Shown: positions 1 to 38,280 of the stretch, piece by piece
Layout: every line of letters begins with the position of its first letter
Numbering within the stretch: the first letter of the stretch is position 1
IMG/VR virus record: IMGVR_UViG_2563366998_000006
Source: a virus
Lineage: Duplodnaviria; Heunggongvirae; Uroviricota; Caudoviricetes
Strand: one strand, 5' to 3'
DNA: 41,043 nt
Made by a program: the position numbers and the translations under genes
The notes under the pieces: model-generated
Told to the model about the DNA's origin: nothing
Database searches by the model: none
Seen by the model: the letters and a program-made list of their open reading frames with translations, nothing else

Positions 1-1284
1 TTACTTCTTCGCCTCTGCAACCACTTTGCTACCCACGCCGCGGTTATTGTATTCCCACATGCGGTTGTAGTTAGTGTCATTCAGATTGCGTTGTATTTCG
101 TCGTTATCATCAACGCTGCCGGTGTTACCCGCAAACGGACGATTAGAGATCACCGCATCAGCCCAGGGTTTGGCTGTGTTAAAACCTTCGTTGATGGCGC
201 TATCACGGATCACCACCTGACCGTTGGTATTGGCATCAACATCCAGCGAGCGACCCAGTTGCGCCACGCCATCACCGGAAGCATTGAAACGGCTGTTTAC
301 GGCGAGGAAACCGTAATAGATGTTAGACAGCGTAGCCGGTGCAAACACATACGCTTCTTGCTGAGTACGTGAGTTCACCACGCGGAATTCGGTGTTATCG
401 AACACCACTGCGCCGCGACCAGAAACGATATCCACATCCCCTTCAATGTAACTGTTGGTCACCAGAGTACGCGGCTGACGGTTGGTTTCCAGACGGTTTT
501 GCACACCACTGTTGGTGACAAAGAAGGTATTCTGACGACCGAGAATGTTGACGTTATTGATCTGCACTTTGTCACCATCAGTACGCAGTGCCACCGCCGG
601 ATGGTTACCCGCATCTACGCTATCGCCCAGCGTGTTTTCGATGGTCAGATTTTGCAGTTGCAGGCCATTGTTTTGTGACCAGAAGACCGCAGAGCAGAGA
701 ACACCGATACTGTCGCTGCGTTTGCTCTGGCAGCTATCGTACATATACCACGCTGGTTTACCTGGCATATATTTGCCGCGCGGGTTGACGTCGTGACGCC
801 AGTCGGCAGGGCTCATGCCCCCATCAAGGGAAAGCCCAATCTTCACATCAATCGGTTTTTCACCTGTACCGTACAGAGTAATTCCACCCGGAGCGGCAGG
901 GACATACACCGTTCCCTGATACTCACCAGGCATCACGGCAATATACTGGCGCTTGTTGGTGCGCTTGATAATTGCCGCATCTACCGCCGCCTGAATCGTG
1001 GTATGCGTTACACCTTGAGTACCCGCCGGGCCGACAACAAAGTCAGGTTGCGCAGGCAGGGTAATCGGGGAAGGATTCCACGCTGCCGCACCTGGTGTCA
1101 GGGATGCAAAATAGTGTTGAGCATCGAAATTCTGCGCTTCTTTTGCCGACAGAATCGGGCGAGAAGAGGTACCAGGCGCGGTTTGATCAGAAGGACGTTG
1201 ATCGGGCGGTGTTGAGCTACAGGCGGTCAGCGTCACGCCAAAAGCCAATGCCAGCGCCAGACGGGAAACTGAAAATGTGTTCAC
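1..1284 (-). CDS. ybhC: YbhC-like outer-membrane lipoprotein (pectinesterase-family putative acyl-CoA thioesterase); host gene bordering attB-lambda
   Basis: Complete 427-aa ORF ending at the window edge; N-terminal signal peptide with lipobox LTAC; recalled as E. coli YbhC, which flanks the lambda attachment site. Confidence 0.85.
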   Translation of the reverse strand: MNTFSVSRLALALAFGVTLTACSSTPPDQRPSDQTAPGTSSRPILSAKEAQNFDAQHYFASLTPGAAAWNPSPITLPAQPDFVVGPAGTQGVTHTTIQAAVDAAIIKRTNKRQYIAVMPGEYQGTVYVPAAPGGITLYGTGEKPIDVKIGLSLDGGMSPADWRHDVNPRGKYMPGKPAWYMYDSCQSKRSDSIGVLCSAVFWSQNNGLQLQNLTIENTLGDSVDAGNHPAVALRTDGDKVQINNVNILGRQNTFFVTNSGVQNRLETNRQPRTLVTNSYIEGDVDIVSGRGAVVFDNTEFRVVNSRTQQEAYVFAPATLSNIYYGFLAVNSRFNASGDGVAQLGRSLDVDANTNGQVVIRDSAINEGFNTAKPWADAVISNRPFAGNTGSVDDNDEIQRNLNDTNYNRMWEYNNRGVGSKVVAEAKK

Positions 1285-1330
1285 AGGTTGCTCCGGGCTA
1301 TGAAATAGAAAAATGAATCCGTTGAAGCCT

Positions 1331-1345
1331 GCTTTTTTATACTAA
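1331..1345. other. attL: Lambda-type attachment core (attL): bacterial arm on the left, phage P' arm on the right
   Basis: Exact core GCTTTTTTATACTAA at 1331-1345, followed by GTTGGCATTATAAAAAAGCATTGCTTATCAATTTGTTGCAACGAACAGGTCACTATCAGTCAAAATAAAATCATTATTTG running into the 3' end of int. Confidence 0.85.
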
Positions 1346-1418
1346 GTTGGCATTATAAAAAAGCATTGCTTATCAATTTGTTGCAACGAACAGGTCACTA
1401 TCAGTCAAAATAAAATCA

Positions 1419-2489
1419 TTATTTGATTTCAATTTTGTCCCACTCCCTGCCTCTGTCATCACGATACTGTGATGCCATGGTGTCCGACTTATGCCCGAGA
1501 AGATGTTGAGCAAACTTATCGCTTATCTGCTTCTCATAGAGTCTTGCAGACAAACTGCGCAACTCGTGAAAGGTAGGCGGATCCCCTTCGAAGGAAAGAC
1601 CTGATGCTTTTCGTGCGCGCATAAAATACCTTGATACTGTGCCGGATGAAAGCGGTTCGCGACGAGTAGATGCAATTATGGTTTCTCCGCCAAGAATCTC
1701 TTTGCATTTATCAAGTGTTTCCTTCATTGATATTCCGAGAGCATCAACATGCAATGCTGTTGGGATGGCAATTTTTACGCCTGTTTTGCTTTGCTCGACA
1801 TAAAGATATCCATCTACGATATCAGACCACTTCATTTCGCATAAATCACCAACTCGCTGCCCGGTAACAACAGCCAGTTCCATTGCAAGTCTAAGCCAAC
1901 ATGGTGATGATTCTGCTGCTTGATAAATTTTCAGGTATTCGTCAGCCGTAAGTCTTGATCTCCTTACCTCTGATTTTGCTGCGCGAGTGGCAGCGACCGG
2001 GTTTGTTGTTATATGGCCTTCAGCTATTGCCTCTCGGAATGCATCGCTCAGTGTTGATCTGATTAACTTGGCTGACGCCGCCTTGCCCTCGTCTATGTAT
2101 CCATTGAGCATTGCTGCAATTTCTTTTGTGGTGATGTCTTCAAGTGGAACATCAGGTAGCCCCCTCCTTATTGCTTTAATTTTGCTCATGTAATTTATAA
2201 GTGTCTTCTGCTTGATTCCTCTGCTGGCGAGGATTTTTTCGTAGCGATCAAGCCATGAATGTAACGTAACAGAATTATCACTGTTGATTCTCGCTGTCAG
2301 AGGCTTGTGTTTGTGTCCTGAAAATAACTCAATGTTTGCCTGTATTGCTTCAGTAATTGCTATCCTCCTGTCTCTGCCTAATCCGAACTCTTTACCCGTC
2401 CTTGGGTCCCTGTAGCAGTAATATCCATTGTTTCTTATATAAAGGTTAGGGGGTAAATCCCGGCGCTCATGACTTCGCCTTCTTCCCAT
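1419..2489 (-). CDS. int: Lambda-type tyrosine integrase Int
   Basis: 356-aa translation (MGRRRSHERRDLPPNLYIRNNGYYCYRD...) essentially identical to phage lambda Int as recalled; adjacent to attL. Confidence 0.95.
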   Translation of the reverse strand: MGRRRSHERRDLPPNLYIRNNGYYCYRDPRTGKEFGLGRDRRIAITEAIQANIELFSGHKHKPLTARINSDNSVTLHSWLDRYEKILASRGIKQKTLINYMSKIKAIRRGLPDVPLEDITTKEIAAMLNGYIDEGKAASAKLIRSTLSDAFREAIAEGHITTNPVAATRAAKSEVRRSRLTADEYLKIYQAAESSPCWLRLAMELAVVTGQRVGDLCEMKWSDIVDGYLYVEQSKTGVKIAIPTALHVDALGISMKETLDKCKEILGGETIIASTRREPLSSGTVSRYFMRARKASGLSFEGDPPTFHELRSLSARLYEKQISDKFAQHLLGHKSDTMASQYRDDRGREWDKIEIK

Positions 2490-2685
2490 TTCTGATCCTC
2501 TTCAAAAGGCTACCTGTTACTGGTCGATTTAAGTCAACCTTTACCGCTGATTCGTGGAACAGATACTCTCTTCCATCCTTAACCGGAGGAGGGAATATCC
2601 TGCATTCGCGCACCCATCGACGAACTGTTTCAAGGCTTCTTGGGCGTCGCTGGCGAGCGTTCCACTCCTGAAGTGTCAAGTACAT
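2467..2685 (-). CDS. xis: Excisionase Xis
   Basis: Internal Met of the 102-aa ORF gives the 72-aa MYLTLQEWNARQRRPRSLETVRRWVRECRIFPPPVKDGREY... matching lambda Xis; 3' end overlaps int start as in lambda. Confidence 0.9.
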   Translation of the reverse strand: MYLTLQEWNARQRRPRSLETVRRWVRECRIFPPPVKDGREYLFHESAVKVDLNRPVTGSLLKRIRNGKKAKS

Positions 2686-2799
2686 CGCAAAGTCTCCGCA
2701 ATTACACGCAAGAAAAAGCCGCATTGATGCGGCGATGGTAGGTCTGGATATCATTGAGCAATGAACAGGCCTCATCGAGTGTGAGGCTGTATGGCTCTA

Positions 2800-3144
2800 T
2801 TATTTCACCTCTTGTTGTGACATTGTTGAAAAATGGATACCAGCTCGTTGCTGCCAGATGATCCAACCGAGAGTCATATCCCATGCCATGTATTCGTTAT
2901 CGCCGTTTTTTGCTCTCCGACGATCGACTGTTTTACCGAAACGCTTTTCCATAAATAATTCATAGGCTGCGCGTTCATCTGGCTCAACTTCCAGAGATGC
3001 CAGTGCAATCCGTGCCAGTTCTAAATCATTTTCAAGCTCAGCGCGAATCTCAGCGAATGCACTCTGTGTTAAGGCGAACTCAATGCTCTGCACTTTATTC
3101 CGTGCGCGCTCAAGCAGTGCATGGTAGTTAATTTCGGTTGTCAT
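2800..3144 (-). CDS. Hypothetical early-left protein
   Basis: 114-aa ORF; ATG overlaps the stop of the upstream gene (ATGA), consistent with translational coupling; no family recognised. Confidence 0.5.
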   Translation of the reverse strand: MTTEINYHALLERARNKVQSIEFALTQSAFAEIRAELENDLELARIALASLEVEPDERAAYELFMEKRFGKTVDRRRAKNGDNEYMAWDMTLGWIIWQQRAGIHFSTMSQQEVK

Positions 3145-4019
3145 ACCCCTACCTCTTCGAATTCCAATTCCAATTGATCACCCCAGATTTCACATGACTC
3201 TGAACACGAGCCGGTATCGAATCGCCTGGCCTGTACCATCGCCTGATACAAATTTCTGTAGTCGCTGTTGGCAGACATTCTGGCAATTCCGTCAAGCGTC
3301 AGGTGACCACGGTACATAATGTCTTTACCTGTTCTGCGATGACCATCCCTGACGTGTTTGCCTGTAACCAGCTCATTAAAAACTCGCATCAGACCTGGTT
3401 CGTCTTTACATGCAAGCCCCAGCTTTTGCGTTGACTTTTTGATGCAGAAAACACAGTTCCCGAGATGCTCCGGGATTTGCAAATCAAAAGGTTGTTTTCG
3501 CCACCACCGGATAACATCCGACTTATCAAAATCTGACAGCTCGGCAAGATACCGGACGCCCGATTTCGGTTTCAGCCTACGGGGTTCGTCTGCACGAATA
3601 CCCAGCCATGTGATGTAATTACCTCGCCCGAAATGGTTATCGCAGTATTTCGTGAAAGGGATGAGTTTTAGCCTGTCAGTACAGAACGCGCCGCCGATGT
3701 ATGGCGTGCCGTACTTTTTAACCATGTCCATAAACGGTTTAAGCACCGGCATTCGTGTCTGAATATCCGTTGGCTCCCATTCTGTATAACCATTTGGCTG
3801 CCCAAGCTCAGGATTTATATCGACCTGTAACACAGTTAGTGGTATGTCCCAGAACTTCACAACCTCCCGGATAAAGCGGTATGTCAGCGGATGTTCGCAA
3901 CCGGTATCCATAAAGATGTAGCAGACGTTATTGCCAGCCTTTCTTTGTTCTTCCATCAGGTGAACAAGATATGCGGATGTTCTCCCGCCAGAAAAACTAA
4001 CTACATGAGTTATGCACAT
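3141..4019 (-). CDS. PAPS-reductase-family (PP-loop ATP pyrophosphatase-like) protein
   Basis: 292 aa; N-terminal PP-loop-like motif VVSFSGGRTSAY; family is common in lambdoid early regions. Confidence 0.75.
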   Translation of the reverse strand: MCITHVVSFSGGRTSAYLVHLMEEQRKAGNNVCYIFMDTGCEHPLTYRFIREVVKFWDIPLTVLQVDINPELGQPNGYTEWEPTDIQTRMPVLKPFMDMVKKYGTPYIGGAFCTDRLKLIPFTKYCDNHFGRGNYITWLGIRADEPRRLKPKSGVRYLAELSDFDKSDVIRWWRKQPFDLQIPEHLGNCVFCIKKSTQKLGLACKDEPGLMRVFNELVTGKHVRDGHRRTGKDIMYRGHLTLDGIARMSANSDYRNLYQAMVQARRFDTGSCSESCEIWGDQLELEFEEVGV

Positions 4020-4546
4020 TTGCGTAATTCCGATAACTCGTTGAAGCGTTCCATAAACATCCCGTAGGCATGGCCCGGTGCCAGTGGAATAACTTTGAAC
4101 ATCTCTGTTGCCGGGATACCTTCCAGTACTGGCCAGAAAGAGCCATCATCAAGCCCGAGATCGCGGCGTTCAGTTGCCAGCATGATGAGATCGGCATATT
4201 TCACGGGTGTACTCATAACTGGGGGTAACCCGTATTTCTCACGGATTACGGCGTCTATTTTTTCTTCCATCCGTTTATAGTCAGGAAGAAGGCGTTTCAG
4301 TGGCGCCGGGATGTCCTGGCAATACGCTTCTGTTGCATCATGCATTAACGCTTCAAAAGCAAATTCCTGCGGCACCAGTTGGCTGCAAAGCACCGCATGT
4401 TGGGCGACGCTGTAGAAATGTGAAAGATGTCCTGCAAAGCGACAGATATTTGAAAGGGAAACCGCGATATCGTTAATAACGATGTCGTCTTGATTTATCT
4501 TGTCATAATAAAAATGCTTCCCGGAAAAAGTTTTAATAAATGACAT
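4010..4546 (-). CDS. HD-domain phosphohydrolase (YfdR/YfbR-like 5'-deoxynucleotidase family)
   Basis: Start placed at the internal ATG (MSFIKTF...) preceded by GGAGA; 178 aa; H...HD motif (AQHAV...LMHDATEAY). Confidence 0.7.
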   Translation of the reverse strand: MSFIKTFSGKHFYYDKINQDDIVINDIAVSLSNICRFAGHLSHFYSVAQHAVLCSQLVPQEFAFEALMHDATEAYCQDIPAPLKRLLPDYKRMEEKIDAVIREKYGLPPVMSTPVKYADLIMLATERRDLGLDDGSFWPVLEGIPATEMFKVIPLAPGHAYGMFMERFNELSELRKCA

Positions 4547-4673
4547 TTTGTTCTCCACGTATATGCGCTGCACCGCGCTGAATTCTGGTAAAAGGAAGTC
4601 CTCACCATCCGGCGATTATTGAGTTAATTACGTTTCCATAAATTCCCCCGCAGGGGCATTTGCAGTAATGAAA

Positions 4674-5498
4674 TCAGGCGGTGAAAGTACCAATAAAGGT
4701 TTCTACTTTGCTGTCTTTGAATTTCTCAACAAGCAGATCACGAAATTCGTTAGCCATTTCTTCCTGCACCGCTTCCAGCTGAATAATGCGCAGAACCAGT
4801 ACAGGACGATCGCCAGTGATAATGCTGAGGCGTAATTTAAATGGACGTTCTTTCAGGCCTTCAAACGGAACGCATTTAAATTCAAATGCCACTGGCATAA
4901 TGTCTTTGGTCTTCGCTTCGACAGACTCCATCAGGGAGCGTTTGCCGCTGAAGTCATTATCTTCAAAATCAGCGGTCTGGTTCGCTTCAATTGTGATTTT
5001 ACGGATAGCCGCCGCCGCTTTGGTTGCCTGAATGGCGTCACCATTAGCATCAAAGCCCACAAGGTAGTCGGCCCAGTCTTCAATCCATTCTGCCAGTGAT
5101 TTCTGGGAGTTACGCTCGCCATTAACAGACAACAGAGCAGAGAACGGTGCTGTCTTTTTCAGTTTGAGAGTGGCGGTGTTATCTGCGTGACCTGGTTCAT
5201 CAATAGTACCCAGGTTAAGCACACTGACGGCACGCATATTATCAGCATCGATAAAGCAGCGGGTGCCTTCATCTGCAAGATCTTTAGAATAACGGGTAAA
5301 GTCATCGATGCTGGCAGTGGAAAGCGCACCACGGAAACGGAAGCGATTTAAATTAAATTTTTCCAGATCATGAATGCGGAAATTCTCAGGCAATGCCACA
5401 GCATCGGCACCAATCTTACTGATAATTTCATTAACACCCTGAGCAGAAATAAGGGCATGGATTTGATTAAATGCGGTTGCGTCTAAGTTTTGAGACAT
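4674..5498 (-). CDS. YfdQ-like (DUF2303-type) prophage protein
   Basis: 274-aa [23 protein letters not shown]...; recalled similarity to CPS-53 prophage YfdQ. Confidence 0.65.
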
Positions 5499-6829: not shown

Positions 6830-7007
6830 CATCCTGTGATAAAACCGTGATTTCCTGATCCAGTTTTTTTAAGGAGTCTATTGTTTCCTGTCGATAAGAC
6901 AGCACTTCACGAAGCTGGTTTATAGCTGCCAGCTTCTTTGTCATCCACTCATAAATTTCCTCATCTGTGTAGCCAGGCGCGACGATTTTTGGTTCTGTTT
7001 TGTGCAT
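6801..7007 (-). CDS. Hypothetical small protein, first ORF of the leftward early operon
   Basis: 68 aa from the internal ATG (MHKTEPKIV...) with strong RBS GAGGAGG; 3' end overlaps the 6395-6829 gene convergently. Confidence 0.45.
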   Translation of the reverse strand: MHKTEPKIVAPGYTDEEIYEWMTKKLAAINQLREVLSYRQETIDSLKKLDQEITVLSQDVTLDIVQTN

Positions 7008-36641: not shown

Positions 36642-37574
36642 ATGCATCGTATAGACACGAAAACCGCGCAGAAGGATAAGTTCGGCGCGGGTAAGAACGG
36701 TTTTACCCGTGGTAACCCCCAGACCGGCACGCCTGCCACCGATCTGGATGATGACTACTTTGACATGTTGCAGGAGGAGCTTTGCAGCGTGGTGGAGGCA
36801 TCCGGTGCCAGCCTGGAGAAGGGGCGGCATGACCAGTTGCTTACAGCGCTTCGTGAGCTGCTGTTAAGCCGCAAGAATCCGTTTGGCGATATCAAATCGG
36901 ATGGCACGGTGAAAACGGCTCTCGAAAACCTTGGTTTGGGAGATGGCTCGGGGCGTTACAGCAAAACTGTCGTTTTTTCATCGTCGGGTTCATATACGTG
37001 GCCAGCTGACGTAAAACGAATTGACGTTATTCTGACTGCGGCGGGCGGCGGTGGCGGTGGATGTAACGCGGAGAACGCAAATCAGACATTTTCAGGGGCT
37101 GGCGGAGGAGCCGGAGGTACTGTTTTTGCCACTATTTATGCGACAGACAACGATGCCGGGCCAGGGACCTATACAGTGACAATTGGTAGCGGTGGTAGTG
37201 GTGCCAATGGGCCAGGGTCTGGAAATAATGGCGGTCATAGTTCGTTCATGACATTAACTGCGCTCGGCGGCCAGGGTGGGCAATGGGGCGGCGCTACAAA
37301 TACCGCTGGCGGGCTCGGTGGTTCAGGCTCTGGCGGTTATAAAACTGAACAAGGCGGAGACGGTTCAGACGGACAGGCGGGCCAGGCGCTATTAGTAGGC
37401 AATGGGGCATCGAGCTATTGGGGTGGCGGCGGCCGCGCTGGGCAACTGAGCGGTAATTCTGGAGTTTGCTCTGGCTCCGGCGGCGGGGGTGCATACGATA
37501 ATAGCTATTCACACACGTCAGGACGTGGCGGGCACGGAGCTAATGGCGTGCTGGTAATTCGGGAGTACATGTAA
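36642..37574 (+). CDS. Tail fibre protein with Gly-rich C-terminal region
   Basis: 310 aa; conserved N-terminal fibre-attachment region then Gly-rich repeats. Confidence 0.8.
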
Positions 37575-37979
37575 ATGAATGATGTTTATGCAGTTGTTGA
37601 TAATAACGTTGTTATTAATGTCATTATCTGGGACGGAATTTCTGAATGGAAACCAGAGGCTGGTAATTTAGTTCCGTTAAACGGCGATGCTGGCATCGGT
37701 TGGTCATATTCAGACGGAGTATTTACCGCGCCACCTCCCCCAGAACGCTCTCACAACGCGTTAGTTGCGGAGGCTGAGCTGCAGAAATCAGCACTACTGA
37801 CCGTAGCAAATAACGCAATAGCACCGCTGCAGGATGCCGTTGATTTGGAAATGGCGACAGACGATGAACAGACGTTACTGCTGGCGTGGAAAAAATACAG
37901 GGTACTGCTGAACCGTGTTGATACCTCAGCGGCACCCGAAATAGAGTGGCCTACGCAACCGGGGGAGCGGGCCAGTTGA
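37575..37979 (+). CDS. Tail fibre assembly protein (Tfa)
   Basis: 134 aa; C-terminus ...[15 protein letters not shown] is Tfa-like; directly downstream of the fibre gene. Confidence 0.8.
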
Positions 37980-38100
37980 TATCAGGCGCAGGGGCAGCAT
38001 CAACTGCTGTCACTGCGTCGATGTAGTCGAGTACCGCATTCAGCCGCCTTTTTTCATCATCAGTCAGTTTGCGGCCTACACCTCTCCGTTGACATCTTTG
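37951..38100 (-). pseudogene. Inverted remnant of an alternative Tfa C-terminus
   Basis: Minus-strand frame encodes ...[36 protein letters not shown], a Tfa-type C-terminus convergent with the intact tfa; closed by an upstream stop after about 50 codons. Confidence 0.4.
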
Positions 38101-38280
38101 TTATATGGTACAACTGCGCAGAGGCCTGTCTCTCCAATTGTGCCAGTTGAATACTACGATACAACGCTAGGTCTTCCAATATGGTATAACGGCACAGCTT
38201 CATCATGGCAGCGAGCTGATGGAACAAATACTTGATTAATTTATGGCGCATCAATATAAAGTATCGATGCGCCATAATAA

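Follow-up and report, generated by a model that had tools for sequence, protein, structure and literature searches.

The closest described systems to the locus considered here are invertible tail-fibre segments. In the G segment of phage Mu the genes run in the order S, U, U', S', gin: a crossover site divides the fibre gene into a constant head and a variable tail, the two assembly genes are convergent and lie 28 bp apart, and both sites and gin are present. The C segment of P1 (cin) is an invertible tail-fibre segment grouped with the Mu G segment. In prophage e14 the order is stfP, tfaP, tfaE, stfE, pinE, and the P segment, 1797 bp bounded by the repeat TTGGTTTGGGAGAAGG and an inverted partner, is inverted by PinE, PinQ and PinR (Kirigo et al.; PMC12529663). 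A truncated, inverted tail-fibre assembly gene, tfaS, occurs in CPS-53 (KplE1) of E. coli K-12. Here we describe a locus of this type in the Caudoviricetes record IMGVR_UViG_2563366998_000006, whose full 41,043 nucleotides are referred to below as the window. Between an intact tail-fibre assembly gene (tfa) and an O-antigen glucosylation (gtr) cluster, positions 37951–38280 hold the inverted end of a second assembly gene (tfa') and the end of a tailspike gene. We consider it probable that the region is a decayed switch of the e14 P or Mu G type, of which one crossover site, now orphaned, and the last 41 codons of tfa' survive, accompanied by the tailspike relic.

The tfa' relic, of TfaE/TfaS type, occupies 37951–38076 on the minus strand and comprises 41 codons (37954–38076) with the native stop at 37951–37953. 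A tblastn search of the window aligned it with residues 160–200 of e14 TfaE (28/41 identities, 68%, E = 1e-12). It also matches Pfam PF02413, Caudo_TAP, at profile positions 95–130 of 131 (E = 4.7e-10, 40.2 bits against a cut-off of 22.1) and PHROG tail-assembly families with E values from 8e-14 to 2e-10. The window is 100% identical to sequence of E. coli CFSAN061770 (NZ_CP023142.1), where PGAP calls the same stretch a pseudogene, 'tail fiber assembly protein, incomplete, missing N-terminus'. The relic is convergent with the intact tfa and overlaps it tail to tail by 29 nucleotides. An overlap of the same length and orientation is found in e14 tfaP/tfaE, in SfIV gp21/gp22 and in yfdK/tfaS of K-12 CPS-53, and the DNA is colinear with these three pairs up to 38076. 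Because the fragment comprises just 41 residues and lacks a start codon, one could ask whether non-coding DNA resembles Tfa here by chance, but the alignments refute this and leave it practically no probability: the E values against TfaE, Pfam and the PHROGs, the colinearity with three other convergent tfa pairs and the independent pseudogene call all speak against it. At the same time the tfa' frame holds no open reading frame (ORF) of at least 30 residues, and a start codon and the N-terminal part are absent. By sequence tfa' is a member of the Tfa family; it is a pseudogene fragment and not a complete gene.

The homologies and the position at which they change can be read directly from the alignments. 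Tfa homology stops abruptly at 38076/38077, whereas the nearest stop in the tfa' frame lies at 38101–38103, so that the homology ends eight codons downstream of that stop in the fragment's own reading direction. Therefore the first ~160 codons of tfa' were lost through a recombination or deletion junction at 38076/38077 and not through a stop codon. An earlier note on this DNA had described a second Tfa-type C-terminus on the minus strand, convergent with the intact tfa and truncated by a stop. Its identification of the C-terminus is borne out by the matches to TfaE (E = 1e-12) and Caudo_TAP (E = 4.7e-10) and by the 29-nucleotide overlap, and the lack of similarity to Tfa proteins that would have spoken against it did not materialize, given 28/41 identities to TfaE. 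The truncation has to be redescribed, as the fragment's own stop is the native C-terminal one and the cut is the junction. The same note had taken 37951–38280 as a Tfa remnant followed by an AT-rich spacer, which is correct as to Tfa for 126 of the 330 bases; most of the remainder is the 3' end of a tailspike gene and a hairpin. Among 5.8 billion proteins no complete version of this tfa' allele was found, and all relatives of at least 75% identity are fragments of 38–60 residues; the search was word-based and under-reports distant full-length relatives such as TfaE.

The fibre gene upstream (36642–37574, plus strand) is a single intact ORF of 310 codons. Its N-terminal ~100 residues form a constant part common to e14 StfP and the fibres of SfV and SfIV, and the C-terminal part is variable and glycine-rich (Pfam Gly_rich_2 over residues 114–307, E = 8.5e-18). 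At the boundary between the two, at 36919–36946, lies an orphan Pin/Gin-type crossover site resembling pixL, CTCTCGAAAACCTTGGTTTGGGAGATGG. This site is identical to positions 4779–4803 of the e14 locus through ...GGGAGA, and 15 of 16 bases match the left repeat of the e14 P segment. On alignment, the fibre genes of the window, e14, SfIV and phage vB_EcoM-689R6 are ~97% identical over nucleotides 1–302, which include the site, and unrelated directly after it. Since identity runs through the site and is lost beyond it, the site is the constant/variable boundary, as in Mu S. PGAP divides the fibre ORF at the crossover site into an 'stfP pseudogene, missing C-terminus' and a 'glycine-rich domain-containing protein'; because the 310-codon ORF is continuous and intact, the division appears to be an artefact arising from the chimeric structure of the gene. 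The tfa gene that follows (37575–37979, plus strand, 134 residues; Caudo_TAP, E = 1e-32; PGAP WP_001000826.1) is likewise intact. No Rfam family reaches its gathering score anywhere in the window. A sub-threshold match to IS009 at 37742–37930 on the plus strand (48.8 bits, where the gathering score is 117; E = 5.5e-10) falls inside the 3' half of tfa and suggests, as a reading of the sequence, that this Rfam family overlaps tfa coding sequence.

What a working segment would require beyond this site is missing. Two site patterns, with mismatches allowed, detected no second crossover site in the 41-kb window: they matched only at 36926–36946 and at 6842, and the latter is not credible as a crossover site, its flanking half-sites being missing. 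A tblastn search of the window with PinE gave a best E value of 2.9, so a serine invertase is absent, and the PGAP annotation of the whole prophage contains only a tyrosine integrase and no serine recombinase; the host chromosome elsewhere was not surveyed for pin. The conserved fibre head, together with its site, occurs once in NZ_CP023142.1, and the host chromosome therefore lacks an e14-type partner segment as well. The window contains no second variable fibre tail, the second cassette being reduced to the 41 codons of tfa'. Among the features of an invertible segment, then, the site at the constant/variable boundary is there, and the invertase, the second site and the second complete cassette are not. 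In other genomes, all 30 of the full-length matches among those listed are single colinear pieces.

A comparison with the known systems places the locus more precisely. With the e14 P segment it shares the upstream ymfQ, the ~97% identical fibre head with its left site, the 29-nucleotide overlap and the 68% identity between the relic and the C-terminus of TfaE, and the series fibre, tfa, reversed tfa' parallels the gene order of e14. The difference is that e14 keeps the full tfaE, the variable part of stfE, the right repeat and pinE, and still inverts (PMC12529663), whereas in the window everything of tfa' beyond the stub is gone and is replaced by the tailspike relic and gtrCBA. The order baseplate J, gp48/YmfQ, fibre, tfa, reversed tfa' likewise recalls the Mu G segment, as do a crossover site that separates the constant from the variable part of the fibre and the convergence of two assembly genes, although U and U' do not overlap. 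CPS-53 offers the nearest match in state of decay: tfaS is a truncated inverted tfa, convergent with yfdK, with the same overlap, and it lies between fibre genes and a gtr cluster (yfdI-yfdH-yfdG). It keeps ~100 codons rather than 41, its spacer encodes RyeG/YodE and not a recognisable tailspike end, and CPS-53 is heavily deleted whereas the prophage in the window is complete-looking. The tfa' relic is the same kind of object as tfaS, and hence of a known kind. Phage vB_EcoM-689R6 (ON470584.1, 5002–7283) shows this module in a further state of decay: mcrA and a DNA invertase come directly after a 172-residue fibre that shares the constant head, and no tfa is annotated.

SfIV, a close relative over the whole tail module, bears on a different explanation. 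Here gp22 overlaps gp21 as tfa' overlaps tfa, a gtr cluster follows, and the DNA match to the window ends at 38076; gp22, in contrast to tfa', is full length (174 residues) and is followed by an insertion sequence (IS) element. Its authors interpreted gp22 as an additional assembly protein rather than as the remains of an inversion system (PMC3851460). In a similar vein, tfa' could be debris of a one-off illegitimate recombination with an oppositely oriented fibre module, a cassette exchange in a lineage where the segment was never invertible. Fibre/tfa cassettes have clearly been swapped in this group, with homology to SfV, SfI, SfII and SfIV breaking at the cassette boundaries; we found no intact invertible relative of this exact cassette; and SfIV itself carries a full-length inverted tfa with IS genes on its 5' side, and neither another fibre gene nor an invertase is annotated ahead of gtrIV. 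A random joint, however, would not recreate the exact 29-nucleotide overlap of the working e14 P segment, nor would it leave an e14-like site, matching at 15 of 16 bases, exactly where the constant part of the fibre gives way to the variable part. We therefore regard a one-off exchange as improbable and favour the loss of a former switch.

The truncation is not confined to one strain. A 51-mer spanning the tfa'/tailspike junction was found, at 90–100% identity, in 69 of 5426 complete E. coli genomes, and the junction occurs at two or more integration sites (adjoining ybhB, and adjoining an intS-type integrase gene) and beside several gtrC alleles. The glycine-rich variable cassette of the fibre is present in 67 genomes and is thus almost coextensive with the junction. 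Together with the relatives of tfa' that exist only as fragments, these distributions point to a single and fairly old truncation, which would later have been inherited and moved around. They also bear on the remaining statements of the earlier note. Its suggestion of a former invertible or recombinationally exchanged fibre cassette gains support from the gene order, the overlap and the orphan site; it was right that the window contains no invertase gene, and the annotation extends this to the prophage; and its view that host range is probably now fixed agrees with the single site in 41 kb, the colinearity of the listed matches and the near identity in distribution of cassette and junction, which together suggest a locked fibre. 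The one Pin-type site in the fibre gene had escaped that note.

The DNA beyond the junction has an origin of its own. On the plus strand, 38107–38235 encodes GTTAQRPVSPIVPVEYYDTTLGLPIWYNGTASSWQRADGTNT followed by a stop, and homology identifies this as the end of a P22-like gene for a beta-helix tailspike, consisting of its last ~42 codons and the native stop. The relic is 67.5% identical to the last 40 residues of the right-handed beta-helix tailspike of E. coli ESC818 (E = 3e-16) and matches phrog_20787 (E = 2.3e-12) as well as tail-fibre and tailspike proteins from numerous phages. The ESC818 C-terminus in turn matches the solved structure of CBA120 TSP3 (5W6F/6NW9) over residues 545–626 of 633 (E = 4e-23). 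Significant tailspike homology starts at 38107, leaving a junction zone at 38077–38106 of which the rightmost codons may already be tailspike-derived. What is present of the tailspike is the extreme C-terminus and the native position of the stop; the head-binding domain and the beta-helix body are absent, and upstream stands the tfa' relic on the other strand.

Two other strains reveal the setting from which this fragment derives. In ESC818 a P22-like prophage ends next to ybhB with its tailspike gene convergent with gtrC-gtrB-gtrA; the tailspike terminates in ...YYDTTLGLPIWYN...ADGT, 32 bp from the gtrC stop, and GtrA is the identical protein (WP_000931964.1). Strain 2018-05-2CC has a longer tailspike 3' end, truncated by IS3, of which the last 22 residues are the same as in the window, as are the hairpin and the gtrC allele beside it. 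On the basis of these arrangements, the spacer is the 3' relic of the tailspike gene that natively accompanies this gtr cluster; it is a relic and not a tailspike gene. Compared with the P22-like arrangement, only the last ~42 tailspike codons survive in the window, and they do so inside a prophage of myovirus type.

Between the stops of the tailspike relic and gtrC, at 38233–38283, the DNA can form a hairpin with a minimum free energy of -27.7 kcal/mol (z = -6.65; none of 200 shuffled sequences was as stable). We do not call it an intrinsic terminator because it lacks a T-run, and a terminator scan did not report it. It probably acts as a transcription barrier that separates the convergent late and gtr transcripts. 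An identical hairpin stands beside the same gtrC allele in 2018-05-2CC and so travels with the allele. The truly non-coding part of the region is limited to ~38236–38280. Nor is the whole spacer AT-rich: the GC fraction is 0.47 over 38075–38224, and the fall from ~0.5–0.58 to ~0.3 starts only at ~38150. On the minus strand, at 38274–38303, a sigma-70-like promoter sequence (TTGACA, 18 nucleotides, TATTAT; 11/12) lies in the extreme 3' end of gtrC and points through the hairpin towards the relics. The only Rfam signal in the region other than IS009 is a meaningless miRNA match on the hairpin.

The gtr cluster itself occupies 38281–41043 on the minus strand, with gtrC at 38281–39768, gtrB at 39755–40684 and gtrA at 40681–41043. 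GtrC, the predicted serotype-specific O-antigen glucosyltransferase, matches Pfam Glucos_trans_II (E = 1.1e-26); GtrA and GtrB were identified from their PGAP products only. The make-up is that of a gtrABC cluster as judged from sequence, comprising a GtrA flippase-like protein, a GtrB GT2 bactoprenol glucosyltransferase and GtrC in one apparent operon at the prophage end, and its GC fraction of 0.27–0.34 departs from the 0.5–0.6 of the tail genes.

Within the tailspike relic, close to the point where the GC fraction begins to fall, 38158–38184 holds a block of 27 nucleotides, GATACAACGCTAGGTCTTCCAATATGG, with codons for YDTTLGLPIW, that is invariant in a five-locus alignment. We aligned the window, two other SfV-like prophages and P22-like sequences and counted identities on each side of the block. 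To its left, the window agrees with the two other SfV-like prophages at 51/52 positions and with the P22-like sequences at only 25–26/52. To its right the groupings are different: the window matches 2018-05-2CC at 54/54 positions, 2013C-4282 matches ESC818 at 55/60, CE0007a is of a third type, and each right-hand type pairs with its own gtrC allele. This mosaic pattern is directly visible in the alignment, and the incongruence between left and right shows that gtrC alleles have been exchanged between P22-like and SfV-like prophages via homologous crossovers inside the block. In 2013C-4282, a 4-nucleotide deletion (TATA) lies just past the invariant block, at ~4098–4100 of that locus, and frameshifts the 48-codon ORF that encloses the relic.

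It may be asked whether the tailspike relic is maintained as a recombination adaptor for the capture of gtrC across morphotypes. The 27-nucleotide block and the conserved gtrB and gtrA may let an SfV-like, myovirus-type prophage gain gtrC from P22-like podoviruses with which it shares integration sites. We hold maintenance for this purpose to be possible but rather unlikely. Less likely than this is that the orphan Pin site may still serve the invertases of other prophages, a conjecture by analogy with PinQ and PinR, which come from other prophages and act on the e14 segment (PMC12529663).

A further possibility concerns the relics themselves. The tailspike fragment lies within a 48-codon ORF at 38089–38235 with a TTG start, and this ORF or a transcript of the spacer might have been co-opted as a small protein or RNA. 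The analogy is with RyeG/YodE of K-12 CPS-53, which is transcribed, translated and growth-inhibitory (PMC7498339): yodE lies between tfaS and yfdI in the equivalent relative orientation and also specifies 48 residues. Conservation of the junction and relic in 69 genomes, together with the promoter-like hexamers nearby, could be taken in the same sense. Against this, tblastn of the window revealed no sequence similarity to YodE, the ORF has a TTG start and no evident Shine-Dalgarno sequence, and PGAP calls no gene there; moreover, the strongest promoter-like match lies on the opposite strand, the ORF is frameshifted in 2013C-4282, and its right half varies with the gtrC allele, being freely swapped together with it. 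The ORF is probably not expressed, and we judge co-option to be very improbable. In K-12 itself (NC_000913.3), the YodE frame runs without a stop through 101 codons as far as the tfaS junction (4498–4803 of the locus, minus strand), and it might represent what remains of the 3' end of a larger gene, placed and oriented like the tailspike relic in the window. YodE has no significant match in phage genomes or PHROGs, and within E. coli homologues are confined to K-12-type strains.

Returning to the decay of an invertible segment as the favoured history, the ancestor would have possessed a constant fibre head, a crossover site, a first variable tail with tfa facing tfa' and a second variable tail, a second site and a gene for a serine invertase (pin). 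A single illegitimate recombination or deletion would then have eliminated the invertase, the second site and the second variable tail along with the first ~160 codons of tfa', and the same event would have fused 37951–38076 to the 3'-terminal part of a P22-like tailspike gene that was convergent with gtrC-gtrB-gtrA in the donor. The fibre would now be locked in one orientation, with its constant head, glycine-rich tip and own Tfa, and the tfa' and tailspike fragments would persist as non-coding relics. Since then, the 27-nucleotide block has served as a crossover point for gtrC alleles moving between P22-like and SfV-like prophages.

Several points weigh against this history. No relative was found to carry this tfa' allele or the glycine-rich cassette in an intact invertible segment with an invertase, and the ancestral state is reconstructed by comparison with e14 and Mu. 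The 41-residue relic gave no BLASTP alignment with Mu U', and the link to Mu is through the genes nearby and the order in which they lie. The deletion may have preceded the arrival of the gtr and tailspike sequences, or one recombination with a P22-like genome may have done both. That the fibre no longer inverts is suggested by sequence features, and the negative search for an invertase covers the prophage; in the host chromosome the fibre head is present in single copy.

The prophage is ~38 kb long and complete-looking. According to the PGAP annotation, the order is ybhJ', ybhC and the prophage, whose end is formed by gtrC-gtrB-gtrA adjoining ybhB and bioA. Within positions 1–3688 of the window the first ~2.5 kb are bacterial (part of ybhJ, then ybhC) and the prophage opens with a tyrosine integrase and an excisionase, which places the element between ybhC and ybhB. 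Its tail module is of Mu/SfV/e14 type, with a DNA-circularisation protein, baseplate V, gp46, baseplate J/gp47 and a YmfQ/gp48-like protein (E = 8e-17 against Mu gp48) ahead of the fibre gene and tfa. A megablast search of 37500–38400 against the phage collection gave no match; in a more sensitive blastn mode the nearest sequenced phages proved to be the Shigella serotype-converting myoviruses SfIV, SfI, SfII and SfV. The window is thus an E. coli prophage of the SfV/SfIV/e14 type, with a Mu-type baseplate and fibre module and a gtrABC serotype-conversion cluster. At ~14811–17203, on the minus strand, a two-gene insert (a 'nucleoid-associated protein' and a 404-residue hypothetical protein) lies opposite to its neighbours between the Q antiterminator and the holin, the classic position of a moron; a moron has also been reported at the corresponding Q/holin position of SfIV (PMC3851460).

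Literature searches retrieved no paper describing the tfa'/tailspike junction. The region is an instance of ordinary phage mosaicism; it reveals no new system and leaves current understanding unchanged. It probably illustrates one way in which a temperate phage loses a host-range switch, by deletion of half of the invertible segment together with the invertase, and the same state of decay is seen in tfaS of K-12. Furthermore, the tailspike relic marks the point at which gtrC is swapped between phage types, and is useful for tracing the spread of O-antigen-modifying genes among E. coli prophages.

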